A stretch of DNA of 47,478 nt, taken from Psammoneis japonica. Taxonomy: Eukaryota. Made by a program: the position numbers and the translations under genes. This document shows, one piece after another, positions 12,475 to 45,092 of this stretch (positions are counted from its first letter, which is position 1; each line of letters starts with the position of its first letter). The stretch lies in assembly GCA_008632985.1 (NCBI GenBank), contig QPGO01000089.1, forward strand, positions 310,001 through 357,478, in the 5' to 3' direction. A model generated the notes under the pieces. That model had not been told where the DNA came from and ran no database searches. It was given only the letters and a program-made list of their open reading frames with translations.

Positions 12475-12486
12475 GTAAAATGACAG

Positions 12487-18430: not shown

Positions 18431-20382
18431 CCACATTCTCCCCTAAAACTCTAACCACCAAAAACCGAGGGGTCGGAAGCGCACTTTTGGGAGCTCTTTT
18501 TCTCCGCACAAAAAACACGCGTTTCGTCGACTCGACCATGACGACCTCCCGTTCTTCGTCCCCCACACCACCTGATGCATCCCCGCCTGCCATGTCTGAT
18601 GCGGCAGTCCCTCCTGCATTGGCCAGCACCGTCACACCCGCTGTCGTTACCCAAACACAGCCGATTTGCCATCCGGAGGATTTGGGCTTCTGTTCGCCGG
18701 ATCCTGTGCCTGAAACACAAACACAGCGCCATGATTGGTCTGCTCCTGTCATTGCGTCCCCGGAGAAACTAGATTCTCGTTCACATCGCCGTGTTGTGGA
18801 AGGCACTGATGAGCCTTCTCTCAAACGGTCTGGGGTGCAGCTCCAAAACCAGGTCAAAAAACAAAAGCAACAAACCGACGTCAAGGTTCAGTGGGCATGG
18901 CAGAGGAGCATCTATGACAGGAGGCATGGTGACAACCTTTCTCAGGATGATCATTCCCAAGCAGAACCTTGTCCATCTGGAGGTGATTGAGACTCACCCA
19001 GAGCCCAGCGGAACCAATCGGAGCCAACAACAAGTGTCAAGATGAACCGCAGCAACATGTGAAGGAGGATGTAGCCAATGGAGTGTGGGCAGAGAAGGTG
19101 CCGGCATGCAAAGTGGCAGCATGGCTGTTGACAAGGCACCAGTTTTGAAGGTCTGACAGTGACAAACACAAAGAGCATTTGCCAAAAGCACGTTGCTGCC
19201 TGCCTCCATTTTAGCAACATGCAAAAACAGCATGTTGCACATCACATGTAGAACTCAAACGGCAAGAGTGGCCTCTTGTGGAACTGCACATGATGACCCA
19301 GTCCTGGAAAATGGAGCAGTGTCCAAGTCACATGCACCATTTGAAACCTTGCCAAATCGCCTGCAAACAAATGCCAACTCGCTGACCTCTCCAACTTGAA
19401 ACTAAAAAACTGTGAAAGCATGCCTGCCATCTAATTGTCATCAGGTTTCTAATTTACAGAGAGCTGCACAATGTGTCTGCATGTTCTAAAGATTAGACTG
19501 CACTCGAGAGCCAACCAAGAGGCACCATTCATGTCCATTGATGTGTCATCCATCAGCAGGCCGTGGTTGTGTGGGTTTCCTGGTCCGCCGTCATCCGTCA
19601 TCCATTGTGTTCCTTCCAAAGCAAAAACAACAACAGTGTCAACAGCACCTGCGGCAGCAAGGGCAGGAGCAACAGTGCCGGGCATGCCAGGGGGCCGAAA
19701 CGCAGGTGCGGCACTGGAATTCGTGACAGCATCTGTGGGAGGTGGTGGGGCGAGAATGAAAGAAGTGTGAGTTGTTGGCATTTCATTGTGGACGTTGTTG
19801 GCAAAATGCAACAACAGCATCAACAGCACCTGCGGCAGTGAGGGCAGGAGCAACAGCATTGGGCATGCTGGGGGGCCAAAACGCAGGTGCGGCATTGGAA
19901 TTCGTGACAGCATCTGTGGGAGGCGGTGGGGCGAGAATGAAAGAAGTGTGAGTTGTCAGCATTTCATTGTGGACGTCATTGGCAAAATGCAATGACAGCA
20001 TCAACAGTGCCTGCGGCAGCAAGGGTGGGAGCAACAGCATCGGGCATGCTGGGAGCCCGAAACACAGGTGCGGCGCTGGAATTCGTGACAGCATCTGTGG
20101 GAGGCGGTGGAGCGTGCAAACAACAGTGTGAGTTTGCAGCATCTTATTTTGTGCGCATCAAACCCACGAGAACCGGAATGATGACATTGCCTGTTGTGTC
20201 AGTGTCATTGGCAACGGTGTCAGCAGGATCGGCGTCCTGGGAAGGCGATGGGGAAGAACCACGAGGCATCGTCATGGTCGAGTCAACAAAAACGCGTGTT
20301 TTTTGTGCGGAGAAAAAGAGCTCCCGAAAGTGCGCTTCCGACCCCTTGGTTTTTGGTGGTTAGAGTTTTAGGGGAGCTGTGG
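18431..20382. mobile_element. ~1.95-kb non-autonomous DNA transposon with ~140-bp TIRs
   Basis: ctcccctaaaactctaaccaccaaaaacc.aggggtcggaagcgcacttt.gggagctctttttctccgcacaaaaaacacgcgttt (from 18438) is inverted at ~20290-20376. No clear TSD. Confidence 0.85.
19629..20112. repeat. About 2.7 tandem copies of a ~181-bp unit
   Basis: Unit starts ...cagc(a/g)tcaacag..cctgcggcag at ~19629, 19810 and 19991, each followed by ggaattcgtgacagcatctgtggga. Confidence 0.85.
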
Positions 20383-23300
20383 AATGGGAATTTTTGCTTG
20401 TGGAACACACACATTCGTGTGGATGTTAAGTGGGCGCACCACAGTTCTCGGCCCGTTCATTTTCTACGTGGCCTGGTGCAACCCAAATCTGTGTAGATTC
20501 AGTGCATTTCGCCCTGTAGAACAGTTTTTGGGTGTGTTTTCTGGCTCGCGACGCAAAACAACACGCAAAATAACACGGACAATGGCGTTTCGCCGATTTC
20601 AAAAATGCGGTTGTTTCTGAGGTACTTTGTAGTGTGCTCTCAACGGAATGTCACACGTCACAGCATGGGGCATGTGACAAGCTCGAGAGCACACAGGTTC
20701 ACATGGGTGGATCATGGTGAAATTTTGAACTGAAGATTGGTGTTGACACCGCCGATTTTGTTGCATCAACACGCAACTCATGCATCACCATTCATGCTGT
20801 GCATTTCGTTGAGCACTCACACGCTCACATTCTTTCAACTTACACACATGTTGTCTTTCCTCATTGTTGTTTTGTTCTGCAGGGTCTCCCTTGCCATGGG
20901 CCATCCCTGAGAGAGAAATGCTTGCTTTGAATGTCACTTCTACCTTGCAACGGCCACGGCAGTCTGACGACAAGTCCAAGTCACAGATGCAGCATCCGGA
21001 TGACTTCACAACAAACACAGAAGCTTGGGTCTGTGGTGTCTGAAGATGTTCAAGCTCTTGGCAGCTCAGATTTGTCGTCGAGCAATTTTGACGCGCATTT
21101 GACGTGCCTCCAGAAGGTGATGCGGAGTTTCATTCGACAGAGAAATGAGCCATGGCGATTGTGATGGCTTGCATTGAGTCTCACAGATGCAAGGCAGTTT
21201 ACAATGTAGAAATGTGTGACTCATTTGCCTCATCTGCTAAGCCTGTGCAACACATTTAGATGTCAAAGTTGGGGCAAATTATGCACAATGCCAAGTCTCC
21301 AAAAACAGCACAAGAGTGCAAGCCCAAAAGAAGAATCAGCTTCACAACTCATCATGGGAGTGTAGAGCTCATTTTTCTGGGGCATCATGTCTCTGTTGTT
21401 TTCATGGAGTGGACATTCACTGGTGTTGTTGCCGCCAACGTGCGAGTTCGCCTTGACAACATGTTGCACTGCATTCTGAGAGTTTGGAATGAAAAAACAA
21501 CTTGCGTTTGCATTGTTCTGTCATGACAGAAATGCACGAGCCATCCCTGGCCCTTTTGGAGAAATGGGGCAAGTGAAAGAGGAGCTACAGAAAGACACGG
21601 ATGATGCCATTTTGATGGATTGTCGTCAGGTGGTGTGTCGAGAGGAGTCGTGATGGAGTGCCGCTTTGTGTTTTTGCACTGCGTCCATGTGGGAATGTAC
21701 GTGCTTGGCTCTCGTGTAGTTTCTGCGTAAAAAGTGCACCAGGCGATCTCTGGACTGCCCTCTTAACATTGAAACTCAACGCACGGCGAAGCCGTGTGCG
21801 CACAACCACGCACACACACACAGCTCCCCTGCCACAGGGGTGGCCGCCACAGCGATTCAGGCTCGGTCCAAACGCTTTCAGTTTTTCGAAATCGGGCAAG
21901 TGGGGGACTGCGTCACTCAAACAGAGTGGAACTCTGCTCAACGCACTTCACCGTGTTGTAAATTGAAATCATGTGGCGAAAGCACGGTGAAACTGGCAAG
22001 TGGCGGAGAATGTCCAAATGACAATTGGCAGGAAAGTGGCATCATCGAGCCTGTCCTAGACACATGTTCTCTAAGGAGAACCAGAAAACGCATCCGCGGC
22101 ATGGCAAGTGCGGTCATGACGGCGGCATGGAAATCTGATTGGACAAACAACATCAGCCATGAACTGCACTCTTCACAACAAGTGATGTTGACATCATTGT
22201 TGCCCCCCAGCACCTGCCAGCATCGCGCAGACCCCAGTCTGCCGACCGGCAGGCACACACCAGGTTCTAGAGCAGTCCCCCATTTGATCGACTGAAAGCG
22301 TTTCCACTGCTGGCACAGGTGAGCCGTGCTGGATCGGATCGACGGATCGCACCCCTGTGGACTTCAGGTCTCACCCATTCCCAGCACTTTGTCGTGCATT
22401 GCATTGGTGGATCTCGTCGTCACTCCCCAACATTTGTCATTGCTCACCACATCAGCACTTCGCGCACTGTCCATTGCAGACATCCGGAATGTTCCGTTCA
22501 TCAACAAAGTCTTGGAAGACGATGGCACCTGTGTGCACCACCACACGAGTGGGAAGAGACCGTTGTTGATCTCTCTCACGTTGCCTTGCTGGTGGATCTT
22601 GTGCCAAAGCACTGTCCTGTGGATTTGGCTCAAAAATCATTGATGGCTCACTCTTCTTCCACCATGCACCCACTCAAAAATGCCCTTCCGGCTGACAGTC
22701 CAGTCAGCTTCATCCGCAAAAGATCAGCCCTTGCGCGCCAATTTCTGCACCATCAAAACTCCTTGTGACAGTGCCAAAGACATGTTCCATGCCTTGTTAG
22801 AAGTTCTCAAAGAACATCCTCTTGCAATGGTTTTGTCCTGCTGGCGCTGTTCCCAACCAGAAGCTTTCGACAAAGCAGTGCAAAAACAATGTGCAAAACA
22901 AGTGCCAAGACCCATGTCGCTCCGGTCATTCATTGCACGGAAGCCATCTCCTTTTGCTTGTCCACTGCAATTGAACAAGTTGCAAGAGTGTTGGATGTGG
23001 TGCCATCCAAGAATCTCACTGCTGCCCAGAGGTGCAACATTCTCTGGTCAACAAGGATTGTTTTCATCAAGCAAAGCATTGCATTTCAGAGCATCTTCCA
23101 GAATGGTTCAAAGAGGTCACCATCAATGCAGGGATTCCTGACAGTCAGCCCAACCCATGATTTCTGGAATCAGCAATGACATGCCCGACACTGTTCAATC
23201 CATTTCTTCTGCCAGTGTCCAGAGTTGGGTGTCACTTGACATGTCTCCAACAACTCACCTGCTGGATCCACACCACCACCCAAGTTTGCACATTCTGCAG

Positions 23301-25652
23301 TGCCTCAAGCTCCTCCAGATCCAAAAAGTGTGGGAGTCCACGGTGGTTTTCTGACTCATTCTCAAGTTTTGAAGAACACACCTGGAGCGGTCATCCCCGG
23401 CACCATCCCAGTCTCAGAAATGTCAACTCAGTTGACTGAAATTGCTGAACTGCAATTGCTTGTTCTCAAAAACCAACAGGAGCAAGAAAAGCATTTTGAA
23501 GCTCTGGAAAAGAAGCGTCAAGAGTCCATTTCTCTTCTTTCTGTCCAGCTGCAAAACACCTGTGCTGCTCAGCTGCACAAACTGCTCTGGCCACTCAGGT
23601 GCAGAAAATGACTCAAGAGACCTTTGCTTCAGCAGTTCACAATGATCCAACCTCTCGTCCTCAATGGAAAAAGCCGGCTTCATCAGCACCCGCCGGGGCT
23701 TCAGCACACAACCCTCCCAAAGACACTTCCATGACCGAAGCAGACAGTTCGGATTTTCTGTGAGGCAGGCCCAGTTGTCTCACACCTGCCTGTCTCTTCC
23801 ATGACACAGATGCAAGCCCTTTTTCCCAGTCTTCCTTCAAGGAAGCATGGCCTCAAAATGAGGGGTGACACCCCTTCATCCACAGCTGGTCCCGCTGCCC
23901 AGTGGTGGACCCAGTTGTTGTCAGGTGGAAGTCACGCACCTCCCTCCAGTGCCATCAACCACACCAAACTGTCGTCAAATGAACCAACATGGAGGCAACT
24001 TTAACAAGTGCACCCAAGCAGCCACCAAAATTCAGGCCAGCACAATTAGAGCATCAGAGACATGTCTTGACACTGCACAATTTCAAGTTTGTCACACCTG
24101 CACCTCAGTGGTGAAATGCTCTTCACACCATGGGAAACTCACTTGCTTGTCCTCAAAGACTGCCTTCTCCATCCCGCACAAACCAGGTGGGACAGAGCTC
24201 ACACCATGCAGCTCTCTCTCTCTCTGCAAGGTGCTGAACTCAACTTGAAGACCCCCTTGGATGCTGCTGGTCAATGCAGATTTTTTGCGGGAAACGCGGT
24301 TGACAAGTTGTGTTTGTTTTGTGTTGCCCAGTTTGTTTTGACTCTTTGTCACTGGCAGGCAAGACAACCACATGTGCTCAGCAAAGGGCTTCACTCCATC
24401 AGCAAGGCCGCGTAAATCCAGACCCTCTTTGCACCTTTTGCACCAATCTGACTCTCATTGTTGAATGGTCCTTGGATGACCCAAACCAAGAAGCGATTTT
24501 TTTTGGAGTTTTTCACGCAGATTTCTGCCACAACTTCGACACACTGGCTTCCATGGCCCAACAATTTAACATGTTGGATGTCATGCACCACCAACATGAA
24601 GATCTTGACTTTTTGACTCATGCATTTGAGGTTCTTGATGCCTTGATTACATCCCGGTGACTCCTGGTGCTTCAGCCACTGTGCAACTCTGCAGATGTGA
24701 ATCTTTTGGCTGCAGAATGTTGTGAGATCACCGCAGCTGCTTTGTTTGGAAACCCTTCAGTTGATCTGCCAAAATTCCAGTTCTGAGATCTTCAAGCATC
24801 TTTGCCCAAACTTGTGACTGCATGTCTTGAAGCAATGGATTCTTTGATTGCAAGTCAAAACATCCTTGCCAGAACAGAAGCCCTCCTTCATTCAGAGGCC
24901 CCAGACCATCATCTTGCTGAGAGATTGGACCAAGACATGCTCCAGTTGTTGCTGTCAGCAGCTGACAAATGCAAATGATGCAAAGACCCAGAGTGGTCAG
25001 CCAAGCCAGCCAAGCTTTGGAAGCAAGTGTTCATGTCATCGCGGATGGTGGCTGTGTTCTGCAACAGAAAGGACATGGTCCCCTCCACTCTCCAAGCTGA
25101 GTGCAGACAGTCAACTTTGTTCCTTCTCCCTGCAATGATTAAAGAATGTACAACGGCCTTGCTTTTGGCCTGTCCGGAGTGTTGCCAGGTTGCAAAGGAG
25201 AGTCAGAAACATTGAGGCACGGAACGTGACACAAGAGAATTGCCAAATTAGAACTCAAAGGCACCAAACAGTCCAAGGCTCAGGCAGAAATTCTTCACAA
25301 TTTATGCTGTGTGGAAGAAACAAAGCAAGTCTTTAGAAAAATCAATGCCTGCAAAAGAAGTGGGAAGACTCTGGCACATTGTTCAGAGATCACAGAGTGA
25401 CAGGGCTGTGTTGCTTGGCATGTTGGCATTAAAGTCAATGAGTGCACATTAAATCACACACATCCAGGAGCAACAAGCATGAAATGCACCAATCAGGATG
25501 GTGAAATTAAACAAAAACATTCCACCCCCAAAACCAGTGGATGTCGATTTCAACATGAAGGGGGGTCAGCAAACATTTGCGTGCATGCACACACCATGAG
25601 ATGGTGGGGTTTGATGACACTGGTGACTTGTGGCCCCTTCTGCGGGTCTCTG

Positions 25653-26670
25653 ATGTGATCTTGCACATTGGCTTGCAAGTTGACTTGCCCAAAACAATTG
25701 TGTTGCCTGCCACATGCTGCTTTCACCACCTGGCTCACATCGTTGATTTTTGCTTCTCATGCATCTCCGCTGCTCCCTGTGTTTGCAACATGAACAACAA
25801 CACCTCAGTTCACTGCAGGAAATGATTGCCCCATGCTTGGCAAACATTTCCTTCCAGCTGGTCTTCAACATCACCTCAGAACTTGTTTGCCTTGCAACCT
25901 TGCAAACTCTCCTTTTTTTCAACACATTTGTGGTGTTTCTGGCAACAAATCAACAGACTCTCATTGCACAGAGCTGCCAATGGGAGAATCTGAAGAACCC
26001 AGTGAAGCCATTGCCTCTTCTGCCTTTNACGCCCCCCCCCCCCCCCCCCCTCCTGCTGAAATGGCTGCAACAGGAGTTGGTTTGTCTCATTCCAGCACCA
26101 CCGCGCCCACTCCACAGGCTCATTTGTGACACAGCCCCCAGGCCATTGAGACCCAACATTGCTGTTGTGCAGGCACAAGAGTCATGCCCTTCTCATGACA
26201 CTGCCATTTGGCCAGGTGCCAATGATGTCTCAGAACACCAGCACCCAGACAACAGAGAAGAATTTGTTTCTGCTTCATTTGATGGTGGTGTGTCTTCTTT
26301 TGTTGCCAAGGGGCTTGCTGCTGTTGTTGATTTGGGCTCTTTTGCCACACTGGATTGAGTTGAGTCCTTTTCTCCTGACAAAGATCTCATTGTCCTTGAA
26401 GTTTGTAACAGCAAAACCATCTCCATGGCTGGCATGTTGGAAAACTGTGTTGCTCCAAGGGTGCCCCAATTGAGTGTGCAGCTGAGGAACTTCTCAGAAA
26501 TGTGCAAGAGGAGTGCTTGTGTGGTGGGTTGTCCACCAACTGACAAATCTCCTGTTCTCGCACTTTCATTTCAAAGCTTCTTGGGTCCATGTTGCTCAGC
26601 ATTGTCGCTGCATGGCAGGTGGCAAGATTGTTTTGGATGAGTCAACTTGCAAGTCAATGTGCAAGAACAT
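25653..26670. mobile_element. ~1-kb degenerate TIR element
   Basis: tcttgcacattggcttgcaagttgacttgcccaaaacaat...cctgcca (25659-25712) is inverted at 26613-26666 (tggcagg...attgttttggatgagtcaacttgcaagtcaatgtgcaaga). Confidence 0.6.
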
Positions 26671-27099
26671 GCCATGAATTGATGCACAAGATTTGTTGTC
26701 TCCACACTGGTCTGACAGGCTTGCATCAAGCAATTGACAATTTAAGACAAATCCAGCTGGTCACAACAACAGACATTTTGTCATGCTGGCGTGCATCTTG
26801 GATTTGTGCACAACCAAATGTGCACGTCAGCACCATGCTCATCATGCAGCTTGTCCCCCCCAATGCTGTTGTGGGGTGCATTGGCCTGGGCTGTCAACTG
26901 GCAATGAAGAGCATGATTGTCATCATGTTCCATCACGACAATGATCTTTTGTGATGCAATGGATGGTGCAAGTGAAGAGTGAAAGCAGCGCACCTGCTCA
27001 CATTCACAAACACTGATGGTTCATTGAGAGAATTGGCTGATGTCTTTGGCGCATGCCAGCACACAACAATTCCTCCCTTTGCACTGAAGCATCAGTGAG

Positions 27100-27420
27100 A
27101 GGCCCCCCCATTTCACTGGGGGTGTGAGTTCCAGGCATGAAAGACTTTCCAAGACCTCCTGGGTTGGCTTGTGTGAATCAAAGACTGGCGCAACACCTTG
27201 CAGAGACAAAAGAGTCCCAATCTTTGAGTTGGGAAAGGCAACAGAGTGAGCGCCATTCTTGTCAAACTGTTGGGAAGTGCTGTGAATTGTGAGGAGCGTG
27301 TGTGTCCTCAATGGGCCCACGCTCTTCTGACACGCGGCTGGCACTGGAGAACATGACAAAATTGGGCCCCAAAGCACAAGCACAAGCACATGAGTCCAAG
27401 TCATTTGTCACTGCCTGCAA
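27100..27420 (-). mobile_element. Fragment of a second Ty1/copia element (protease-integrase linker region)
   Basis: QQFDKNGAHSVAFP...LSLQGVAPVFDSHKPTQEVLESLSCLELTPPVKW parallels MPLEAMG...TPAEQELREFPKIQMTSQQPWDP of the main copia at ~40340-40460. Confidence 0.55.
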
Positions 27421-27634
27421 AAGCAGCAGACACATCTTTCAGGAACAACCTCTGTGTCAACTGCATTCCTGTTCCAGCTCCAGCAGGTGATTGCAAGTGG
27501 TGGCAATGAGATGTGTGAATGCAACAAGGCAGGGCCCTGCTGGTGTGACCCTCATCATTGTCAACGTGAAAAATCAGAGTCATTGTCACAAGTCAAGGGC
27601 TGGCATGTGAGCTCTGGCAAGTGGAAAAATGGTT

Positions 27635-27860
27635 CCAGATTGTCCCTGTCTTCAGAACTTCTTGATTCTAGATTGTCCCAATCCAGAACTGTGCAGCTCT
27701 AGATTGTTCTGATCTGGAGCTGTTCTGATCTGGAGCTGCTCAGCTCCAGCTGGAGTGCCCCAATCTTGAGCTGTGCAATTCTGATTTGTGCCCCAATCAG
27801 CTGGAGCCACACAACTCTAGATTGTCCCATCTGCAGCTGCATTTGGCCAATCTGGAACTG
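27635..27860. repeat. Degenerate short-period repeat (agattgtccc / tctggagctg motifs)
   Basis: Repeated ctagattgtcc, gttctgatctggagctg and gtgccccaatc motifs. Confidence 0.55.
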
Positions 27861-27889
27861 TGGTCTGCCTCACAGAAGGAAGTCATTTG

Positions 27890-28300
27890 CTTGATTTAGC
27901 CAGAAATGACTGTTTCACATCATGTTGGGAAAATTGTCCAGTGGTGCAGCAGATGTCCATCAGTGTGTCAGGGCCCACAGCATGTTTGTGCGACTGTGCG
28001 TGTTGGCCTTGTGCACCACCCACTTGCTGGAAGATGGAAGGACAAGCAAGGTTGGTTTTGTTGGTGGTTTTAGTGGCCCATTGAGTGAATCTAGATGCCA
28101 GATGGGCTCAGCCACCCACAGTCTTAGTGCAATGACGTGAGTGCAACCAACGAGATGCTTCTGGGCCTGTTGCAACTGCTGAAGTTGCAAAAAGTGAGAG
28201 TGTTTCATGGCATTGAGTTGTTCCCCTCTGATGCCACATCACAGCTGCACCAGCTCAACTTTTAGAGCACAGAAGACAATCCCTGATGCTCCAGATTTCT
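27890..28300 (-). repeat. Putative 3' LTR of the copia element
   Basis: Lies just downstream of RNase H, preceded on the minus strand by a purine run (ttcaagggggaccaag). Segments recur at 41421-41750 (gagcacagaagacaatccctgatgctccagatttc; gttggccttgtgcac). Confidence 0.45.
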
Positions 28301-30531
28301 CTTGGTCCCCCTTGAAATGTTCCCAGCAGACTTGACAGGGACAATTTGATCTGGTGCTGACCCAGTGACTCCCAAACAACAACCACAATCTCTGAGCATG
28401 GTGCAAACCCTCGCTGAGGAAGAAAATTGCTTGCTCCATGCATCGAACTCAACACGTGAACTTGTCTGTCAGAAAATTCTGTCTGACAGACGACGTGACC
28501 ATTTGTGAACAGATCACTCAGGTTTGTCTCCGTTCCTTCCTTTGCAATCCCAACAGCCCCTGCAGCAACAGCTTTGCAGTTGAGGTGATGCACAATGGAG
28601 TGATGCTTCTTCTTGAGTGCAGACTCAGGAAGAGAGCAGTTGTTGTTGCAGATGGCCTTGTTGTCAAAAAGAAAATCGTCGGCCCTTTGATCAGCACACC
28701 AAACATTTGGAGTTTGTGTCACAGACCCTCTGCAATCTCAGCGGCATTCTTGAGTGCAACAATCTCAGCTCTGAATGTGCTGGCCTTCACAGCATCCTGA
28801 CGTTTTGAGCACCACATGACAGGTGCCCAATTGACAAACATCAGGACACCTGCATGGCTGCAATGATTGGCAACATTGCCAGCATGGCTGCCATCCACAA
28901 AACAATGTGTTGACACTGCACCACCTCAAGCAGGCAGTGCATTGGTTGGGATGGCTTCCATTGCATCTTGGCAGAAGTCACACCAGCCACATTTTGTGAA
29001 TCACGACTCAAATGTCATTGGATGTGAAACAGGTCAAATGCAACTTGGCACTTTGGAACCCATTTAAGATGTGCAAAGACATGCAGCACCTGTTCCAGAT
29101 GACCAATGCAAGGCAGCACAAGGTGGGCAGACATCAACGAAACTTCCAAATGTGTGTCCACTCTGCTGAGTTTTGTGGCCCAAACCAACACACCCATCAA
29201 TGCTTGGCAGCAGTTCAGTCCTTTGGCATCCAACTCACCAGTCATGTCCAACATGGGTTTGTGCCCACTGCCCAGCAGGGTTGTTGCCTCACCAGCAGGC
29301 AAATGTTTCCCTTCCTCCTTGCCAAGTCCATCCTCAATGTTCTGAACAGTGGCTTTGCAGTGCTTTTCTGCAGAAGTTGCCCAACAGGTGGTCCCGTTGG
29401 TCAGAGTCATCTTTGACAGTGTGGTGCTGAGGCAAGAATCTGGCGCAGCTGCCCTGTCATCTTTGAGCTTGAACTTGGACCTGATGCCATCCATTGTGTC
29501 TTCATGGGTTCATGACTGATCAACAGCACATTGTCAACACAAACCAGAATGTGTTTGCAGCACTCAAATCCACCGGGTTTCACTGCAGGTCTCATCCATG
29601 CATCCGGATCGGCCTTGCTTGGTTTGCACCCTGGATCACACAGCTTTTCTGCCAGAAATGCTCTGAGTGCTGCTTCAGAACTCTTCAATCTGCAAAGAGC
29701 CCCAACCACAATCATGATGCAGCTTTCATCCTTGCCAAATTTGGAACCTGCATGGGTCCAAATCTTCTTCCTGCAAGGGGCAGCAAGGTGAGCATTCTGG
29801 ATGTCACACACAAAAACTTGCAAGCCGTTGAGTGTGGCAAGCATGAGTGCAATTCTTGCCAAATCCCAAGAGATGACAGAAGAGGAGGTGATGTGTGCAG
29901 GGGGTGCAGCAGTGTGGCTTCCTGCTGCCATGCGAGCTTTGCGGCGGAAGTTTTCTCCCATCTTGATGTCAAAAATCACATGGCACTTCACTTCCTGGAA
30001 CCCAGGTGCCATGTCATCAAGCTCCCCTTGTGCTTTTCAAACACAACCTGTGCATTCTTCATCTGCATGCAAGTGGGCATCCCACCAGAGGGTGTTGCTG
30101 TTTGCATGATCAATCTGAATTGCCTCCTTGACGCTCTTTGGAAACCAAGTGCCAAGCTCATGTGTCCAAAGCCAGCACTTTGACTTGACCTTTGCAATGG
30201 AATGCTTGTGGGTTCTCATGACATGAGGGACCCACCAAGCAAATGCTGCCTCTTTTGAGATCCTGCATCAAATGGCAAACTTGGCAACTTGCACAGGAAA
30301 ACTCTCTTTGGCACCCTTCAAGTCGATCCAAGTTGTGCTTCGATCCTTCTGTTGGAGCAAAAATTCCCATCCTTTGGCAGACTTGCGCCTCTTCTGAATG
30401 CCCTGCTCAGTCTCAAAGAACACAGATTCAGGAATGTCCCCATTTGTGCAGCAATCTGCTGTCTCGTCAAATGGGACATGCTGACTCCTGTCCTTGTCAA
30501 TCTGTGCAAATGTGCTCATGATGGCAGCGGA

Positions 30532-35184: not shown

Positions 35185-35645
35185 CAGTCTTTCCAGTCCT
35201 CGGGGCTGATCTTACGGTCCTCGTTGTCAGGGAAATCTTGTTCCCTTGACTGGTGCTTGATCTCCTCATCACAGCTGTCGAACTTTGCCTTGTTCTCTTG
35301 TGCAGTGGCTTCTAGATTGGTGGCCCATTGAACGGAGGTCCTCAAAATGACACTTCCTGTCTGTGTTGAAATGCAGTGCGACACATGAGACTCCCTGTTC
35401 TGTGAGGTGCGCCAAGCCACCTGCCAAGCTTCTTGTCGCCAAGACCCGTGTTCTCCCTGTGCCAGACCGAATCATAAAATCCAAAGTCATGGTGCTCTGA
35501 GATGCCCACAGTCTCCCCAAGGATGTTCTCCAGCCTTGGCCCAGCATCTGAATGGTGTGCTCTTGGGAACGTGCAAGACATGGTTTCACAGGCCCGTGCA
35601 AATCAGCAGTCCCACAGTCGCCGTGGTGCTTGCTTCTTGACCATG

Positions 35646-38600
35646 GACGGGTTCCAGTCCCAGGAACACTGACGAAAATGTCGCCAACATGGAAAACTGA
35701 GACATTTTGTGTTGTCTTGCGACAATCAAGAAACAATGCATTCTCTCTGGCTCGGCAGATCCACATGCTTGACTCCGTAGAAAAATCATTTGTTGCCAGT
35801 TTGATGAGACATTTCCAAAAATGTTGCCAAAATCGCCAGTGGCACTTCAGCAACTAGTTTGCACAACATGCCATGCTTTTAACACATGTGTGAGTTTTGG
35901 CAAAGGAAGACACATGGAGACAACGTGAGACAAAGTGAGACAACTTGAGACAAAGTGAGACAAAGTGAGACAACTTGAGACAAAGTGAGACAAAGTGAGG
36001 CAAATTGAGACAAAGTGAGACAACGTGAGACAAAGTGAGACAAAGTGAGACATCGTTGGCGATTGGCGATCAATGCAATGGCCAATGGTCGTGCCACACT
36101 CCTCACTGCGAGCACTGAGCTGGCAGCCACCTTGCTGCTCTACTCTCTGGCAGAGTGGCCACTGTTTTGCTCTGGCTGCTCTCTGCTGCCAGAGCAGAAA
36201 GTGGCCAGAGCAGCAGCGGCAGTTGGCACAGCAGTGGGCAGGCAGCAGGACTGGCACTGCACCGCACCGACAGGGCGGCAGTCGCAGTCGTGCTGCTGCT
36301 TGTTCATCGTTGCTCAAACAATGTAAAAAACATCTGCACACAAACCAATGATTGTCTCACTTTGTCTCAATTTGTCTCACTTTGTCTCAAGTTGTCTCAC
36401 TTTGTCTCACGTTGTCTCCATGTGTCTTCCTTCGCTAAAACGTTGCACATGCATCAATTTGCATTGCATTGCATCAACTGGTCACTCGAGTGCCACTGGC
36501 GATTTTGGCGACATTGTCGGAAATGTCTCATTGAACTGGCGACAAACAATTGTTCCAGCATGTGTGCAGATCTGCCAAGCCAAAGAGAATGCATTGTTTC
36601 TTGATTGTCGCAAGACAACAAAAAATGTCTCAGTTTTCCGTTTTGGTGACATTTTCGTCAGTGTTCCAGGTGGGACTTTTTGTGACATTTGCTGCCCCGC
36701 AGAATTCCACGTGCGAGCTCTGTAGTTCGCACTCTGATTGATGGACACATTTGTCTTTGACACAAAACAAACGGCCAAGTTTGCAGCACATGTGTCTCTG
36801 TTTGCACTGGTGTTTCCTGAGTGTGCATTTTGGTCGGACCAAATTGGCATTTTGGTCGAACCAAAATGCTTTTGTCGACCAAATTGCCGGACCGACCAAA
36901 TCAATTTGGTTGACCAAATTGACATTTGCGAAATCTTGACCACATTGATTTCAGGCACATTTCTGCACAAACAACACCAACGCAGCTTCTACGAAATTTG
37001 CGTGGCGTGTCGACATGCATGTTTTCCAATGGAATCTTCCCGCGAAAACACGCCAAATTCCCCCAACCAAAATGACGTTTTCGGGAAACAAAATCATTTT
37101 GGTTGCAAGCATCAAATTTGTCAACAAATTCGGTTTGACCAAAATGCCCAACAGGAATCATTCGAAAATGTCGCGTGTGGGTCATCTCGCGCACGTGTGC
37201 ACGGTTGTCAGACTGTGCAGGCGTGCGCATGTGTGCGAGGTGTGAGTGGAACATGCGCAGAATTGCTGCTGAGTGAGTTGACATGCGGTGGATTTTCCGC
37301 CGGTGCACAACCTGCATGGTCTGCACAAAACTTTTCTATGCAAGCACCCACTGGCAACCCCTGCGTGTGTTTCTGCGTGTGCTCTCGCACTGATGTCGCC
37401 CTTTTCAGATGGCATTTCGCTGAGTCCCCTGTCAACCTTTTGGCCCCTTCTGCCATTGGTGCACCCTTTTATTTCCATGATGCACAACAATTTTCAGTGG
37501 AAAACGACTGGCGTCGACACTTTGTGGTTCGTGTGCTTGTTGTCTTGTTTGGCAATTTTTTGCGGATTCAGTGCGATTTCTACACAGAATCCAGTGCAAG
37601 TTCTATGCGCTTCAGAAATGTGTGCCGACAGTCATTGCGTCTCCGATGCGATCAACTTCCATCCTTGCCTGAAAGCCCCCAACAATTTCTTTTGCTCCTG
37701 CTGGCCACTCAAGTTCTTCACCTCATGTGGTGAAAGTGCTGTCCCTGTTGTGGCGCCTGCGAGTGTTCGCATGGACAAACCATCGGCATCATCTGACGAC
37801 CGTCCATTTGCTGCGTGGATCGGCTTTTCTGTGCAAGATTCAGTGTCAATTCTACGTGAGAACAATGTTTCTTCCGATGACCTTCTCGTCACATCACCAA
37901 GACTTCCTGTTTCATCCTTGCAAGTCACAAACATCCCCTTTTCCACTTGCTGGCCCACCAAGATCACTGTTCCGAGCAGTGAACTGCACATTGTTGTTCT
38001 GGTTCATGCAATTGTGAAATTCAATCAGTCTTTGTTGAAGACAAGATTCTCCCTCAGAGGCAAAGATTTTCTCTCAGAGCATGCGCTGACTTTGAATTCT
38101 CTGCTTGGCTTGATTGTCCTTTGCTGTGGTGGTTTGGGTGCCTTGCATCCTCTCTGAAAGAAAGCAATGATCTCATTCTGGTGCAATTTTTCCTTGACCT
38201 TTTATCACTGGTGCGCGTCGCTGCAAAGCGGCGCGTTGACCGACTGATCGCACGACATTCTGCCGCACTCTCCTCGCAGGGTGCACTGGAAGTGTGGGTT
38301 GGCCGGCGCCGGTGTTGCTGGGCAAAGGTGTGACAGCACTTAAAATTGGGTTTTGGTTTTTTTTTCTGCGTGGTCTGCACAAAAGATAAATTTGTGTTGG
38401 TCTCTGAAGCTCTCACATGTCACAAAATTGTGTTGTGCTTTTAACAGACACACGCAGCAATTCAAAAATCTTGCAGAACACCCCAAAAGAACTCTGGAAT
38501 CTGCACAAAAAAATTTCCATTTAACGGTGCAAACAGAGTTGTCGCGAAGTGCTTCTCAAAACAACTTCAGATTGAACACAGTGAAACATCGACTGTTGGC

Positions 38601-39532
38601 AAAACAGAGTCACCATCGGACAAATGGATCCCGTGTTCTTCACGCGCAAACAACGCGACAACGCACAACAACGCCATGGCCAGAAACGCAAACGCCGTCC
38701 CCTCATCTACAAGCTGGGAATGCAAGATGCTGTTGAAGTGGTTGGACAATGTGCATGCGCTGCATTCATGGGTCAAGTTGGGTTTCTTCTCGCTGCTTGT
38801 TGTTGTGTCATTTTACAGCGTTTTGACCCGCGCCGTGTTCTTTGCTTTGTTGCTTCTGCTCACGCGCCACCAACAGCTCTTCCTGCAGGGTGTGGCCAGC
38901 TGCACGGCTGCATCGAACCCAAACGTGCGTGACCAACTGGCCCCACCCCGGCTGACTCACAATTGACATTTTGCACAAGGAAAAACACAAAATCGTGTGG
39001 AAATGTGCGCAATGTCATACGAGAGAGTGATTGGAGCTAACAACTTTTCGGGAACTGAATTGAAATGCCATCTGGTTGACGGCATTGGCCTTCACCATGT
39101 GAATCAAAATGCCGTCAATCAGATGGCATTTCAATTGATTTCCTGAGAAGTTGACATTCGCACACGGACAGATGGACAGACTGACATCAATTGTTTTTAG
39201 CACTCTCCTGCACAATTTCTGCGTGATGACTCTCAGGACCCGAATGATTCCCATTGAATTTGGTCCGACCAAAATGCACATTCGGGAAACACTGCTCAAA
39301 GTTTTTGACAATGCGCCTGCCCTGCGCCATTCTTAAGACACTCGAGAATGGCGCAGAAGAAAAAAATGTCAAAAGTTGTTGAATGGATCGCCTGACAATT
39401 GCACCACAAAATGATGCAAAATTTCTCCAAAATCACGTAGAAATGTACGTGCGCGACATACGACGCGATTCAAAAAACCATCGATGTCACAGTTCAGCAG
39501 TGGAGGTCCCACCTGGAGACCTGGAACGCGCC
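35646..39532. mobile_element. Long (~2.9 kb without the foldback) GAC-terminus DNA transposon with 4-bp TSD CATG, inserted in copia integrase
   Basis: Left end gacgggttccagtcccagg|tgggactttttgtgaca, right end tgtcaca...ggtcccacctggagacctggaacgcgcc. CATG at 35642-35645 and 39533-39536. Removing it rejoins integrase KWFCIM-VKKQAPRRLWD. Confidence 0.88.
35664..36666. mobile_element. Foldback-type element, copy 2
   Basis: Same TIRs and 10-bp arrays (35917-36052 and 36352-36420) as 31702..32732. Confidence 0.9.
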
Positions 39533-41420
39533 CATGATGCAAAACCACTTGCATTGAACCTCACGCACAACTCCCTCTACAGGATTCTGGTTGTGCTTGT
39601 CAGGTTCAATGACATGGCAATCAATGCCCTCCTTGCACACCATCTTCATGAACTCCATGCCTGGCTTTGTTTGCTCCTTGGATCCATCTGTCAGGAGTTT
39701 CTCAGGCATGCCAAATTCTTGGCAAAATGCCTTGAGAGCTTTGCCAGCCTTGCTCTTCTTGTCCATGGGAAGATTGCAGCAAAATGGTGTTTGTTCACAA
39801 AGATCTGGGCACATCAATTGCCTTCCAATGAAATCACCTTGCCATTGGCTGTGTTGGTTGCCTGCTCACCTTGCAACCTTGGTTTTGTGAACATCCAATC
39901 CACTCAATGATGCCAACCCAGCATGGGCATCAGTGCTGATCTCACAAGCCTTTGCGTGGTCTTCTTGAGTGTGCTCGCTGCTTGCTTGAGTCCAGTGCAC
40001 CATCGTTTGCTTGAGTCAGCAGCTGTTGCATCACTGTGTCTCTCTTTAGACATGAACATCTTCTGGAGCACTGAGTCTTTAGTTCCATCACCAATCATTT
40101 CTGCAGCAGAGATCTGCACTTCCTTTGACTCTACATTGACCACCACTGTGAGCCCAGATTGGACTTGATCGGCTCCATGGACGAATCTCCCATTGCAACA
40201 GTGCCTGGACTGAGGGTTGCTGTGGACAGGATTGGCTTTGAACTCATGTGTCAGATTGGTGTGAACCATTGCAATTGATTGAACTGGCTCCATTTCCTCC
40301 TCTGCAGATTGTCAAGTGCCAATGGACTTGAGCTCAATGTTCTGTGGATCCCAAGGTTGTTGGGAGGTCATCTGGATCTTGGGGAATTCGCGCAACTCCT
40401 GCTCTGCAGGAGTGCAAGTTGCTGCAACGATGTTGGTCCCCATGGCCTCAAGTGGCATCATGAATGATTTGTCCTCCACAAGGACACACAATGACGAGTC
40501 AGAGCAGGGATTGTCCTGAACCTTGATGCCAAAGTGCTGCAATTGGTTTTGGTTGACCAATGGGTGCTCCATGGAATCAGGCACCCACAATCCCTCATGG
40601 AAGACCAGAACAAACATTGCTCCCGATGTTGGTGATGTCCACGCCATGGCCACTGAAACTGTTGTGGGACACTGTTGATGGAATGGCACCCCTTGTTGAA
40701 AGGTGACACATTGCACTCTTATCCAGAACAACCCAAGAGGGCAAAGTTTTGACCAAAAACAGTGGTGTCAGCCTGCGAATCCATTTCAAGGCATCCATGC
40801 TGTGCCTTGTTCATGTCGCGGATGTGAGTCGTGATTCATGTGTCACACACCATGCTGTTGAGATGTGCAGTGTCAAGGTGACAACTTCACAGATGCATTT
40901 GCTGCAGCTGTGTGGATTGTGCTTGTCTGATTGATGTGGCTGTCCCCCACCCAAATGTGGCAACCAACCACAACACAAAGTTCATGATGCTGCAGAGCAG
41001 GGTCCAGCTCAGCAGTCAATTCTTCTTTGCTCTGCACCTTTTGCTGTGACCACTGAATGCATCCCCGGCATTGTTTCCATCTTGACCATCATCCCTTGAA
41101 TCATCATTGCCAGAGTCGGTGCTGGCGCTGGTGTTCAAGCAGAGATTTTACGGTTTGCTTCTTCAAGCTGTGACGACAGCTTCCAACTCTTCTTTTTGAG
41201 CACCTTGACAGATGCACAAAGGCATTTGGGATTTCCAGGTTGTTTGGAAACACCCAGATGCACACGCTTGTTGACAACCTTCTGTTTGTCCTCCTCACTC
41301 AACTGGCACCAATCCTTGTGGCACCCAGTGTCAATGGACCCGTCTTCATTGCAGATGGTTGTGCCACCAACTCTTCCTCCTCCAGAGGCAACTGCGGCAA
41401 TGGCGCGGTGATGTGATGCG

Positions 41421-41750
41421 TGCAACTGCCAAAGTCACAACAAGTGATCATGTTTTGTGGCAGTGAGTCATTTTCCTCCAATGCCATGTCACAGTTCCAC
41501 CACTTCAACATTTGGAGCACAGAAGACAATCCCTGATGCTCCAGATTTCACTTGCCATCAGCATCAAGCCCATCAAAAACTTTGGTTGTGCCAGAAATGG
41601 AAGCGGCTTGAGCAAAAACCCGCTTCAGTCAGTGCATTGTTTGCAACCATGTTGGCCTTGTGCACACCACCCATTGCAGCATTGCTGGAAGACAGAAGGA
41701 CAAGCAATGTCAGTTTTGTTGTCAGCCCTTTTAAAAACAAAACTTGACAA
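41421..41750 (-). repeat. LTR-like segments homologous to 27890-28300, in permuted order
   Basis: 41421-41550 matches 28171-28300, and ~41585-41740 matches ~27891-28075. Confidence 0.5.
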
Positions 41751-43419
41751 CAGCTGCACTGGTTGTCAGATCTGCAGACAAGAATGAAGCCCAGATTCTG
41801 ATGAATCATGCAATGAATCTCCCAAAAATGGAGCCCAAGAAGTGTTCAAAGAGGAGCTTGTGTGATGCAGAACAGCAACACAATGCTCAGCTCTAAAAGG
41901 CATTGGCTGCCAAGGCTCCAAGAATGTGTTGCCATTCCTTGCAATCTTGACTGCAATGAGGATGAGTTTGGCTTTGATGTCTTCTCTCACTCTGTCAAGT
42001 GCACTGGGTGCATGCAGCCACTGACACACATCCCAACAAGGTTGCTGATGATGCCAAGGAGGCTCTGCGGTTCAAGAGACAAAGTGCTTGACAACATTTT
42101 GCCTTGTCCAAGTGATTCATTCAACAAGTGCACCTCCAACGGATGCAGTTCTGGCTGCGGAGAGTGGGGTTAGAGTCAGGTGAACACCTTGAGGCAGTCA
42201 CCAAGTTTGATGAAGAATGCATGGATGACAGAGTTTGCAAATGCAGCTCCCAATGCATCCAGGCCACTGAAGATCAAGAAGCCACAGCTGCAAAGATTTC
42301 CAAGGAAATGAAGCTGAAAGCAAAGCTGACACTGCAGAGGAGGAAGAACTGGCCTGTGAACACATTGATGAATGTCAAGATTGCAACAAGAGCTCATCAT
42401 GTGGTGCCACAATGAAGCCGGGGACATGGGTGATTTCATGAAATGTGCAGAAAATCACTGCGGACAATCAAGCATGGCCCAGTGCAGCATTGAAGCCCTC
42501 TCTGATTTTCAACATTGCTCCAACTGTGATGGAGGCAAAGTGTCCCTCCAGGAACTCATTGGAGTGCAGTTCAATGTGACCAACTCTCTCTCACAACAAA
42601 GATGAGTGTGTTTCCTGTCTTGACAACAAAGAAGGGGTGCGTTTGTCTTCTTTGACTGCCTTCTGTTTGCTTTGCATTTCGTTTGATCACTTTCTGTTTG
42701 TGAAGCAGCAAAGCTCACCTTTGCCCCTTCCATTTTGTGCACAGCAATTCTGCATGGCTGTGATGAACAGCAAGATGAACAGAGCACAAAGCGTCAACAA
42801 AATGTTGTCTTTGACCCCAGTGAATGTTGATGCAATGGGTGTCAAGTGTGTGATCATCTGCAAACCACGTTCCACCTCATAAATTTCAATTTTGCCTCAA
42901 TGACTTGAATCTCTCTCATTCTTGTGTTTGCATTGCACAGACCGCCAACCAAAAGGCTCATGAAAAGCAAGTCTGTCAATGACATGATGACCTTAAAGCA
43001 AGGAGCTTAAAACAAAAATGACGAGTTTGTTGTCGGCTGCAATGCCCATTTCACATTTCTGGTTGGAACAACAAACAAGCTGACATTGATGAGTTCTCCT
43101 TTGTCAAGGAACAGGCGTCAAAAGTGTCTGACAACCACGTTGCTTCCCTTGTCATCTTCAGAACTGGCTGCTTGCTTGGGGGCATTGTGGGTCACGGCAT
43201 GTGTCCTTTGCGCTCAGCTCGCCAACTGGATCATGCCTTGAAGGTGGCCTCGCACAGAGGAAAGCATGCTGACCCGACCAATGTCACAAGGCAGACCTCT
43301 GGCATTGTCCTCGGAAGGTCTGGCAGCAGCAACAAAACAGTGGCTCCAGCAAAAAAAGCCCCTGTCATCCAATGTTGGCATTTCGGGGTTTGAACTGTCC
43401 AAGGACAAGAAAAGATGCA

Positions 43420-44572
43420 AAGGTTGTGTGGGAGGCACTGTGTCCATGACACCGACCCGCGCGCACTCTCAGGCATCTTGGCCAAATCAATGGAGCTGGG
43501 ATCTCTCACTCTTGTCTCTTGCTTGAGAGCCTCTGGAGAATGGTGTTGCAAACAGTGATGACTTGGACGGCCCTGCTTCTTCTGTGCAAAGCGCTGACCA
43601 AGACATGCTGTGCTTGTGTGCGGAGCTTGTTGCTGTCAAGACGGCTCGCGAAAGTGTCACGAAGCAACTTGATCAAGTTGACCTCAGGAAATCTTTGCTG
43701 ATCTTGTCATGTTTTTTGAGGCTGGCAACAACTCTGACAACGCATTGTCCACTCTGTCTTCTCTGGATGTCCTCAGGGCCGCTCATCTTGTTAAGTTGGG
43801 GAACGAGGCACTGACTGACGTGCGACCAGAAGATCTGCAGGCTGGTCACTTGGATGCCACAGCTCACAGCATTCACCACAAAAATGCAGAACAGGTCATT
43901 GAAGCTGCCAAGTGGGATGACGAATCAAGCAAAACGAGTCTCCATGCAGCCAGCCTTTTGCAAAGATTTCCCTTTTGTCCTTCCCAACCCTTGGTGCTCC
44001 GAAAACAGGATGCGCTCTTGAACCACTCTCTCAGTTTCAGAGCTGTCAGGAGACTCTGGACTCTGAGATGGGTTTGCATTGGATCTGGGTTTCTCAAGGG
44101 TTCAAAAAGGATGAAGAGTTCTGTGGAACTGTCTCTGTGGATCCCGCGATACCAAGCGCATTGGTTGGAGCATGTGTCTGCAGGGGCAGGGCTTGGGACA
44201 AAAGGAGGCATGGAAACAACAATGGCTCTGTGACATCAAGGAGGAGACAGATCAGGAGGCAGCCATCAAGTGGGGCAGCACTGTGACTGCATCAGGGCAT
44301 CCTGTTCATTGTTGTCATGCTGCAGGAAAATGTGGCTTTCACAGCCTTTCTTTTTCTGAGACTGCGCCGCTTCAGGGCTGGCTGTGCACATCTCCCTGGG
44401 TTGGTGCCGGGCTGTCGATCATTGCCAGGGCAAATGAATCATTGTGCTGTTGTGGTTGTGGTGAGGAACTGGAGAGCCAGCCAAAAGAGAAGAGGAGCGC
44501 ATCGAAGTCTGGAGAGAAGTGGTTGTCTGAGACTGCGCCTTGGTTGCCACCACGCTGGAGAGCGAAACTGTG
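43420..44572 (+). pseudogene. Hypermutated partial duplicate of the RING/MIB-HERC2 gene (homologous to ~10290-11428)
   Basis: Colinear alignment (aatcaatggagctgggatctctcactcttgtctctt; gcggagcttgttgctgtcaagacggctcgcgaaagtgtcacgaagc). Differences are dominated by TA->TG/CA and CG->TG/CA. Confidence 0.92.
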
Positions 44573-45092
44573 CATCCAGACATTGTTCTGGAGAACAAGC
44601 TCAGCAACCTTGTGCTCTCTCCACTGGCTTGACTAGAGGGCCTCTACTCCAGCCAGGCTCTCTCTAGCTAGCTAGAGTAGCTGCTGCCAGCAGCAGAGAG
44701 TAGAGCCAGCTGTAAACAATGGAGTTTGTGTGAGCGCGCAATGCATCATCACGCGCGCATGCGATTCAAATTTCAGAAATTTGAATGAATCGCATGTTTT
44801 ATGACGCGTGAATATGATTCAAATGTATTCCTCATATTAATTGCTATATATGGCTTACTTTTTGTCACTTAAAATGAAGCATTCAGTCATTTAGAACCTC
44901 AAAAATAACCGTTGCTGGTTTCCGAGCGCGCACGCACGTTGGTCTCTCGTAGAAGTTATGTGTGACTTTCCAACCGGAGACAGCGTGCACTTACCCAGCA
45001 AAATCCCGCGGCCGCACAACCGCAAACGACACAACACCGTGTGCTCATTGTTCATAAAGTATCCAAGCAAGTGAAGAACTCTTCTTACCACC

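Follow-up and report, generated by a model that had tools for sequence, protein, structure and literature searches.

Near-complete loss of TpA across about 26 kb of DNA in the diatom Psammoneis japonica: a sequence footprint resembling TpA hypermutation in Bigelowiella natans

Hypermutation directed at a single dinucleotide has been described in the chlorarachniophyte Bigelowiella natans. According to the main text of a preprint (Mettrop et al., bioRxiv 10.64898/2026.01.13.699255), 231 single-nucleotide mutations were scored in two integrated viral regions of mutation-accumulation lines; all but one of them (230) were A>G or T>C, and the GC-biased mutations there all fell on TpA. The local rate was about 1000-fold over that of the remaining genome, and the effect was confined to a subset of the lines. 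The same text reports 124 clusters that are poor in TpA and rich in CpA and TpG, with an enrichment in reverse transcriptase (RT) and DDE domains, and it proposes an ADAT2-like protein as a candidate, citing the activity on DNA of ADAT2 from amphioxus and trypanosomes. Diatoms, stramenopiles and CpG are not mentioned in that main text. Here, we describe a comparable footprint in the diatom Psammoneis japonica, where TpA is nearly absent from a block of about 26 kb. The block lies within a window of 47,478 nucleotides, this being the whole stretch of DNA that was analysed (assembly GCA_008632985.1, contig QPGO01000089.1, positions 310,001 to 357,478), and all positions below are those of the window. 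An initial annotation, made from the letters of this DNA alone, knew of no description of such a process in diatoms. Full-text literature searches found no account of TpA hypermutation in diatoms either; the phenomenon itself is on record in the B. natans preprint.

The extent of TpA loss was assessed from ratios of observed to expected (o/e) TpA, CpG, TpG and CpA in sliding windows, the check that had been suggested for this locus. Counts for the block were taken without an unmutated island inside it (25,500 bp remaining), and the flanks (18,478 bp) served as reference. The block holds 132 TA (5.2/kb, o/e 0.08), compared with 770 in the flanks (41.7/kb, o/e 0.63), a difference with a Fisher p of 3.6e-163. 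In 2-kb windows, TpA o/e is 0.03-0.23 at 19-43 kb and 0.49-0.73 in the flanks, and when the block is cut into 51 windows of 500 bp, each has a TA o/e of 0.27 or less together with a TG + CA o/e of 1.4-2.1. Runs free of TA extend up to 1,512 bp. For the block overall, o/e is 1.74 for TG, 1.69 for CA and 0.44 for CpG, and the G + C content stays at 0.49. The near-elimination of TpA over about 26 kb in exchange for TG and CA, as first claimed, is borne out by the mass balance: per kb, the block lacks 36.5 TA and 33.3 CG (sum 69.8) and has gained 34.7 TG and 34.2 CA (sum 68.9).

The limits of the block had been placed at 18500 and 44630. The block is real, and its edges are sharper than this suggested, with the last dense TA on the left at 18452 and, past 44150, the next TA on the right at 44634. 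There are 26 TA in 18001-18500 and 3 in the next 500-bp window; at the other end, 1 TA in 44001-44500 is followed by 23 in the next window. The left edge falls just inside the 87-nt inverted repeat of an element bounded by terminal inverted repeats (TIRs), and on the right the homology to a gene paralogue ends at about 44572, some 60 bp before the first TA. The edges are therefore abrupt and coincide with element or structural junctions. Furthermore, two features had not been recorded in the initial annotation: a further TpA-depleted block, at about 2520-5291, and the unmutated island of 396 bp, at 30532-30927. Coordinates are collected in Table 1.

When the TG and CA sites of the block are read in order, no long runs of either appear (autocorrelation at most 0.08 in size), and the windowed variance of TG relative to CA is 0.7-1.4 times the binomial expectation, no higher than in the flank. 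Both strands have been changed independently, site by site. Strand-coordinated tracts, of the kind expected from processive single-strand deamination, were looked for along the block and none were found.

The direction of change can be read from pairs of copies, for which rates of A>G and C>T were computed per base on both strands. The right end of the block is the 5' fragment of a gene whose intact paralogue lies in the left flank; 38 TA in the intact paralogue compare with 2 in the fragment. Changes in the fragment comprise 19 TA>TG, 13 TA>CA, 26 CG>TG and 20 CG>CA. A was replaced by G after T in 34 of 72 cases (34 of 36 TA steps are gone), as against 14/144 after A, 11/143 after C and 10/172 after G; the excess after T has an odds ratio of 10.8 (p 2.6e-15). 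C>T occurred at 45 of 151 CpG sites and at 6 of 142 CpA sites, with 4/128 and 7/158 in the remaining contexts (3-4%). A second pair is formed by the island, which resembles a miniature inverted-repeat transposable element (MITE), and its mutated copy in the smaller block, where A>G after T reached 22/54 compared with 6-12% in other contexts. A control pair that stems from the same duplication as the gene paralogues but lies outside the blocks (13423-15631 and 45277-47474) gave 0.10-0.14 after T and 0.07-0.08 in other contexts.

Because the gene paralogue, the MITE pair and an RT outgroup (below) all agree, these comparisons show that TA is ancestral and that TG and CA are derived. They also support several claims of the initial annotation: that the intact and mutated copies share one direction, with TA in the intact paralogue and the intact MITE and TG or CA in the block copies; that A>G is specific to A after T, since the other contexts of the paralogue pair stay at 6-10%, and is not generic GC-biased change; and that a second process, apart from the decay of CpG, converts TA to TG or CA on both strands. 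The direction was further said to be opposite to that of fungal repeat-induced point mutation (RIP). This agrees with the paralogue pair, in which TpA is destroyed and C>T at CpA does not exceed background.

The outgroup is provided by a remnant of a Ty1/Copia RT inside the block. A phmmer search with its frame against 1.84 billion proteins returned 3,367 relatives, 54 of them at an E value of 1e-30 or better. In eight of eight relatives tested, RVT_2 scored above the Pfam cut-off and aligned where expected in polyproteins of 1,300 aa; the frame itself scored 16.5 bits, below the cut-off of 31.6. Long terminal repeats, integrase and gag were not identified for this remnant. Its 209 aa contain no Tyr, compared with a mean of 4.7% in the relatives. 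At the nine columns where at least half of 109 relatives have Tyr, the frame reads F, S, H, C, C, C, H, C and I, so that six of the nine are now Cys (codons TGC, TGC, TGC and TGT) or His (CAC and CAC), and the catalytic YVDD has become CVDN. Inactivation through the erasure of Tyr codons had been predicted for elements in this DNA, and the remnant conforms to it.

Copies that reside together in the block give some information on timing. Two mutated direct repeats lie within it, and between 31221-33397 and 35185-37330 there are 129 differences, of which 95 belong to the TA/CG/TG/CA class, 16 are other transitions and 18 are transversions. At 23 sites one copy has CA and the other TG. Such different outcomes in resident copies indicate that mutation took place in situ, after the duplication. 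If outcomes were 50:50 and the discordant sites derive from TA, about 66 TA would have been present at the duplication and 81% per copy would have been lost since. The excess over other sites since then would be about 100-fold at TpA and about 13-fold at CpG. In contigs of paralogous sequence from a public sequencing run (X1), 256 of 315 differing places are transitions, and 8 adjacent CA<->TG doublets occur among the 40 differences listed (296 more).

Not all TA steps were lost to the same degree. The survival of each NTAN context was expressed as its density in the block relative to that in the flank, with contexts pooled with their reverse complements. Survival is 0.44 for TTAA, 0.33 for CTAA/TTAG, 0.22 for CTAG, 0.15 for CTAC/GTAG, 0.14 for GTAA/TTAC, 0.08 for ATAA/TTAT, 0.065 for GTAC, 0.05 for ATAG/CTAT and 0.019 for ATAC/GTAT, and ATAT has a survival of 0 (about 99 expected). 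An additive flank model with rates of 0.41 for T, 0.75 for C, 1.37 for G and about 2.3 for A at the base 5' of TA predicts 0.313, 0.120, 0.169, 0.066, 0.047 and 0.025 for the six mixed classes, where 0.328, 0.153, 0.138, 0.081, 0.051 and 0.019 were observed. Ranked by its effect on rate, the base 5' of TA thus follows A>G>C>T; for the 3' neighbour the equivalent ranking is T>C>G>A, the contributions of the -2 and +1 positions being inseparable in survival data. The split between Cys and His at Tyr codons gave no clear answer on these two contributions and is not relied on. An impression that survivors are mostly YTAR, with RTA and TAY preferred as targets, is quantified by these values: YTAR survives best and RTAY is wiped out. 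Within the arms of the TIR element at the left edge, the only TAs are in the survival-prone CTAA context.

The loss of CpG has a different distribution. Two sub-blocks show heavy loss (Table 1), and over the whole block CpG o/e ranges from 0.08 to 1.0 while TA o/e remains at or below 0.27 throughout. For example, CpG o/e is 0.8-1.0 at 32.5-34 kb and at 37-39.5 kb, and 11 of the 51 windows combine a CpG o/e of at least 0.75 with a TA o/e of 0.05-0.22. On composition, the decay of CpG forms a layer of its own in this DNA, patchier and apparently slower than the loss of TpA and separable from it. It had been argued that deamination of 5-methylcytosine (5mC) could account for the CpG part only, and the C>T rates in the paralogue pair, high at CpG and at 3-4% for other C, are consistent with this.

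Table 1. Positions of the depleted blocks and of the elements and copies within and around them.
Feature	Position	Strand	Remarks
Main TpA-depleted block	18453..44633	both strands	Edges from TA positions; sole interruption is the island at 30532-30927
Second, smaller TpA-depleted block	2520..5291 (about)		TA o/e 0.06-0.18 in 500-bp windows; holds ankyrin-like frames with internal tandem repeats and the mutated MITE copy
Ty1/Copia reverse transcriptase remnant, hypermutated	29410..30036	-	209-aa frame; phmmer relatives with RVT_2
Unmutated MITE-like element with terminal inverted repeats, inside block	30532..30927		396 bp; inverted ends read by eye
Hypermutated MITE copy in smaller block	4668..5066		73% identical to island; 4 TA compared with 27
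TIR-bounded element at left block edge	18438..20376		87-nt inverted arms, 85/87 positions complementary
Hypermutated 5' fragment of gene paralogue	43424..44572	+	82% identical to intact 10281-11427
Intact paralogue, used for polarising	10281..11427	+	Overlaps open reading frame 10807-12474 with MIB_HERC2 domain
Sub-block with heavy CpG loss	22501..30500		CpG o/e 0.09-0.44
Second sub-block with heavy CpG loss	39501..43000		CpG o/e 0.08-0.36
Internal direct repeat, first copy (about 3 kb), mutated	31221..34226		90-95% identical to 35185-37330 and 38366-39212
Internal direct repeat, second copy, mutated	35185..39212		Insert of about 1 kb at 37331-38365

That a real, TpA-specific mutator has acted in vivo is, in our judgement, very probable. 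The process would work at the level of DNA in the diatom nucleus, turning A:T into G:C specifically at the palindromic TpA step, and since either strand would be changed independently, each TA would become TG or CA. Its targets would be particular stretches of selfish or dead DNA, here the Copia remnant, TIR elements, a MITE copy and the gene or pseudogene fragments joined to them, and it would run to near saturation and halt within tens of bases of element junctions. Deamination of methylated CpG would add the slower, patchier layer, and the loss of Tyr codons and of motifs that contain TA would kill the proteins of the elements. The likeliest chemistry may be that an enzyme deaminates adenine in DNA, leaving hypoxanthine, which the following round of replication would copy as if it were G; the pocket of this enzyme would demand T 5' of the target A, with flanking bases modulating the rate. 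In tRNA, the target of TadA and ADAT2, A34, is known always to follow U33, so an activity of the TadA/ADAT2 type would produce a TpA rule on DNA. Adenine deamination as the chemistry is nevertheless a tentative choice, for which we see somewhat less than an even chance; the class of enzyme, the targeting signal and the role in defence are matters that we infer. The whole account, in which a TpA-specific mutator of the same kind as in B. natans acts on selfish or dead DNA, with adenine deamination as the likeliest chemistry, seems to us reasonably likely on balance.

Changes to the other base of the TpA step would leave the same record. If T rather than A were modified, for example through oxidation of the TET/JBP type to 5-hydroxymethyluracil or 5-formyluracil, it could mispair with G and give T>C, and by symmetry the depletion, the balance of TG and CA, the strand pattern and the contexts would fit equally well. 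In the DNA of dinoflagellates, TpA and TpC are the preferred sites of 5-hydroxymethyluracil, and A:T>G:C transitions are a known consequence of 5-formyluracil. Set against this, the sole experimental precedent, in B. natans, names an ADAT2-like deaminase, though only as a candidate. We regard thymine-side chemistry as unlikely.

A second candidate of the initial annotation was error-prone repair by a polymerase of the eta type, recruited in heterochromatin by T:G mismatches at deaminated methyl-CpG and leaving a WA>WG signature. It would explain why TA and CpG are lost from the same DNA and in a correlated manner. The motif of this polymerase is WA, and A in ApA is spared: AA>AG stands at 14/144, the same as after C or G, compared with 34/72 for TA>TG, and AA o/e is 1.26 in the block and 1.13 in the flank. 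In the 11 of 51 windows with a CpG o/e of at least 0.75, TA has nearly vanished while CpG is intact. Because ApA is spared and TA is lost without loss of CpG, this repair fits poorly; a near-complete, strand-symmetric loss at every TA is likewise ill suited to patch repair seeded at CpG. On these observations, we regard the proposal as very improbable.

The changes could also have originated in RNA, by A-to-I editing of element transcripts (ADAR-like, or like the TAD enzymes of fungi) that became fixed through reverse transcription and reintegration. At least one element of the block is a retrotransposon, and editing of the ADAR type favours U 5' of the edited A, according to the discussion in the B. 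natans preprint. Yet TG (19) and CA (13) are interleaved within the 1.1-kb fragment of the gene paralogue, which is not a retroelement; the gain of TG equals that of CA, with no strand-specific tracts, and two resident copies took different outcomes after their duplication. Since both strands were changed in a fragment that is no retroelement and resident copies kept changing, we give RNA editing hardly any weight.

Hardly any weight is due, too, to an artefact of sequencing or assembly, in which A after T would be systematically miscalled on modified DNA. The window has a single N at 26028, in the middle of the block, and the sole supporting run, X1, is of a library type that is not on record and is maybe from the assembly's own sample. 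The run covers 72% of the sampled words of 37.5-47.4 kb; two other runs, X2 and X3, contain almost nothing of the window and carry no weight here. Its k-mer contigs within the block (806, 407, 501, 500 and 1,807 bp) show 0 differences to the window, as does a 776-bp contig that spans the right edge (44314-45089), and the depth, that of single-copy DNA, is 33-36 alike inside the block, over the edge and in the flank. Given that X1 is possibly the same sample, this means that accurate reads carry these letters, yet it is no independent replicate. Miscalling would not spare a 396-bp MITE with 27 TA in the middle of the block, would not turn the same site into CA in one repeat copy but TG in its partner, and would not remove CpG as well.

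Related sequences from other assemblies also argue against an artefact. In five of 242 public relatives of the Copia RT (P0133, P0168, P0202, P0236 and P0125), His or Cys occupies 5-7 of the 6-8 conserved-Tyr columns that could be scored. Tyr is kept at one such column in P0125 and at none in the other four, and each of the five has its own pattern of His and Cys and is 40-46% identical to the RT frame of the window. The one relative named by organism among the matches listed (120 of 1,560), from Nitzschia sp. Nitz4, is 57% identical and is not depleted in Tyr. Two metagenome loci were compared, one of which bears the signature: L001 (1,052 bp, 42% G + C) has o/e values of 0.26 for TA, 0.09 for CG, 1.76 for TG and 1.86 for CA, whereas L002 is normal, with a TA o/e of 0.82. 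A search of metagenome contigs with P0125 as query gave 67 pattern matches, 0 of which were confirmed. Together, the proteins and the contig point to a footprint that also exists outside this assembly. The least credible proposal, that foreign or repeat DNA here avoided TA from the outset through its composition or selection, can appeal to one duplicated segment that is TA-poor in both copies, but it is contradicted by TA at homologous sites in the intact paralogue and the intact MITE, by Tyr in the relatives of the Copia RT, and by the balance between the loss of TA + CG and the gain of TG + CA.

Several points weigh against the account that we favour. The evidence consists of a fossil footprint, seen in a single window of 47 kb from a single assembly, and the sample behind the public run that agrees with it may be the assembly's own. 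Deamination of adenine and a lesion on the thymine side lead to an identical outcome in sequence. Inside the block, TA o/e and CpG o/e are correlated (Spearman 0.53, 51 windows), which makes a shared cause other than age possible, although age alone would also give a correlation. In the survival values, the ancestral frequencies of NTAN are approximated by flanks that are rich in genes. The second part of the internal repeat (33379-34226 and 38366-39212) is TA-poor in both copies (7 and 8 TA) with only 2 discordant sites, so that some of the loss is older than the duplication or this sequence was always poor in TA. Finally, an intact MITE sits within the block while an older copy is mutated, which means that the process is neither continuous nor simply regional.

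The island has further properties of interest. In the 500-bp window 30501-31000 there are 27 TA and 29 CG. Its summed contig depth in run X1 is about 69,000, compared with about 34 for single-copy sequence, and its two ends recur in the contigs, many of which begin at 30532 and are joined at 30927; this depth, from which its copy number is estimated, makes it look like a MITE. The element is AT-rich, and its inverted ends share the core ACGCGTTCCAG, with AGGTGGGA a few bases further in; no clean target-site duplication could be made out. Copies or fragments of it were seen at 4668-5066, 39434-39530 and 4970-5064. In all probability it represents a MITE that is highly abundant in the host diatom and was active recently; it either arrived in the block after the mutation event or escapes recognition.

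The block had been described as nested transposable elements. This is supported in part, by the Copia RT remnant, the MITE, the TIR element and a multi-copy read depth over 27.5-41 kb in run X1. A fragment of an ordinary gene paralogue is also included, and 134 of 135 block frames of at least 88 aa (25 of them at least 150 aa) gave no usable Pfam match; the matches obtained were one sub-threshold RVT_2, with SARG and Ycf1 at chance level. Besides the gene-paralogue fragment, the depleted blocks hold ankyrin-like frames. The latter are two long frames of 476 and 260 aa at 2556-4769 on the plus strand, with weak matches to Ank_2 and a Tyr content of 0.4-0.6%. Long frames persist in mutated DNA because the loss of TA removes the stop codons TAA and TAG, and gene finders could call such DNA as genes.

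Other repeats are found in and near the blocks. Inside the TIR element at the left edge, 19621-20151 is made up of direct repeats in tandem, each about 180 bp long and 82-87% identical. A 127-bp inverted repeat with 89% identity (5553-5677 and 5987-6112) lies just to the right of the smaller block and may belong to a further TIR element. A dispersed repeat of about 330 bp (76% identity) is present at 12490-12810 and 16349-16682, among unmutated genes where TA is normal. The gene paralogues belong to an old segmental duplication (10281-15631 and 43424-47474) whose copies are 80-82% identical and which took in a gene region encoding MIB_HERC2 and Rad60-SLD domains. Its second copy is without about 1.3 kb between the two homologous parts, and only the 5' part is hypermutated; the 3' part has at most a slight excess of TA>TG/CA (25/178, compared with 15/156 in the reverse direction). 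The genes of the flanks are ordinary and intron-poor, and include a ureide permease and genes with ankyrin, MIB_HERC2 and Rad60-SLD domains. Named relatives of the permease are all from diatoms (Seminavis robusta, Amphora coffeaeformis, Epithemia clementina and Ditylum brightwellii), with a best full-length identity of 52%. Together with the RT relative from Nitzschia, they place the window in a diatom whose own proteins are missing from the collection searched.

A saturated footprint in a diatom would extend the phenomenon to a second major lineage, and one that is ecologically weighty, which argues for a widespread defence over an oddity. The block can also be used as a natural substrate map, since the order of contexts, the independence of the strands, the edges at the level of elements and the independence from CpG are all features that a candidate enzyme must reproduce. 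Mutated transposable elements escape domain searches, as seen for 134 of 135 frames here, and so the repeat content of diatoms may be underestimated; in the same way, predicted proteins that are free of Tyr and rich in Cys and His may be mutated elements. A natural DNA adenine deaminase, if such it is, would be of interest to base editing, which now relies on evolved TadA. More speculatively, diatoms and chlorarachniophytes may share a dedicated, TpA-specific defence that deaminates adenine in DNA, a mirror image of fungal RIP that either predates the split of Stramenopila and Rhizaria or spread between them. It would recognise single selfish elements and not chromatin regions, act episodically, saturate in diatoms independently of cytosine methylation, and employ a natural enzyme with a preference for RTAY. 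We put this forward as a possibility about which there is considerable room for doubt.

Among the known systems with which the block can be compared, 5mC deamination at CpG accounts for CG>TG/CA and leaves the same TG and CA products, methylation here being presumed; it cannot touch TpA, and its extent varies independently along the block. Adenine deaminases (TadA, ADAT2-ADAT3, ADAR, and TAD2/TAD3 editing in fungi) share the conversion of A to I, read as G, and a preference for 5' U or T, and differ in that their natural substrates are RNA. ADAR, moreover, prefers a 3' G, unlike the block, where a pyrimidine is favoured as the 3' neighbour if the flank effect lies on that side.

A family of proteins found only in stramenopiles, as described by Iyer et al. 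[quoted passage not shown] The fusion of a deaminase to reader-type Tudor arrays is the kind of architecture that the initial annotation had proposed to search for. In the account of Iyer et al., the family belongs to a CDD/CDA-like clade, of cytidine type, and is predicted to edit small RNAs. It is not known in Rhizaria. As a candidate enzyme it is a lead only.

RIP in ascomycete fungi resembles the diatom process in several respects: it too is a regional hypermutation by transitions that affects both strands, targets particular dinucleotides in repeats and the DNA next to them, and ruins their reading frames; it has sharp edges and can take in neighbouring sequence other than transposable elements. 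RIP makes TpA from CpA/TpG by C>T, whereas the diatom process destroys TpA by A>G; the target base, and hence the chemistry, is different, and the diatom process has no known link to a sexual stage. As for a trigger by duplication, as in RIP, a MITE with a summed depth of about 69,000 escapes while a gene fragment with 82% identity to its paralogue is mutated. The sparing of a high-copy MITE, together with the single-copy target in B. natans, makes dependence on repeats doubtful. Because its direction is opposite, the diatom process is best seen as a functional analogue and not as a member of the RIP family.

The closest likeness is to B. natans, as described in the main text of the preprint. 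There, too, A:T>G:C falls exclusively on TpA and gives TpG or CpA according to strand, leaves clusters poor in TpA and rich in CpA and TpG, and is apparently episodic, with only some lines affected in B. natans and an untouched MITE in the diatom block. In B. natans the changes keep to certain tracts of non-host or selfish DNA; in the diatom, the depleted blocks include such DNA together with the gene-paralogue fragment and the ankyrin-like frames. The differences concern the host, a rhizarian compared with a stramenopile; the rate, which was measured in B. natans, whereas in the diatom a fossil footprint allows no more than an indirect figure of about 100-fold, obtained by comparing two resident copies; and the degree, with a TA o/e of 0.45 in the region derived from a nucleocytoplasmic large DNA virus compared with a near-saturated 0.08 here. 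The targets in the diatom are DNA of a retrotransposon, of TIR elements and of gene fragments, with no viral genes seen. Furthermore, the superimposed decay of CpG is not discussed in the main text of the preprint, and the extended hierarchy of contexts, RTAY over YTAR, comes from the diatom and was not found in that text. Judged by its sequence, the diatom block nevertheless shares the defining features of TpA hypermutation in B. natans and would represent a second host lineage for it.

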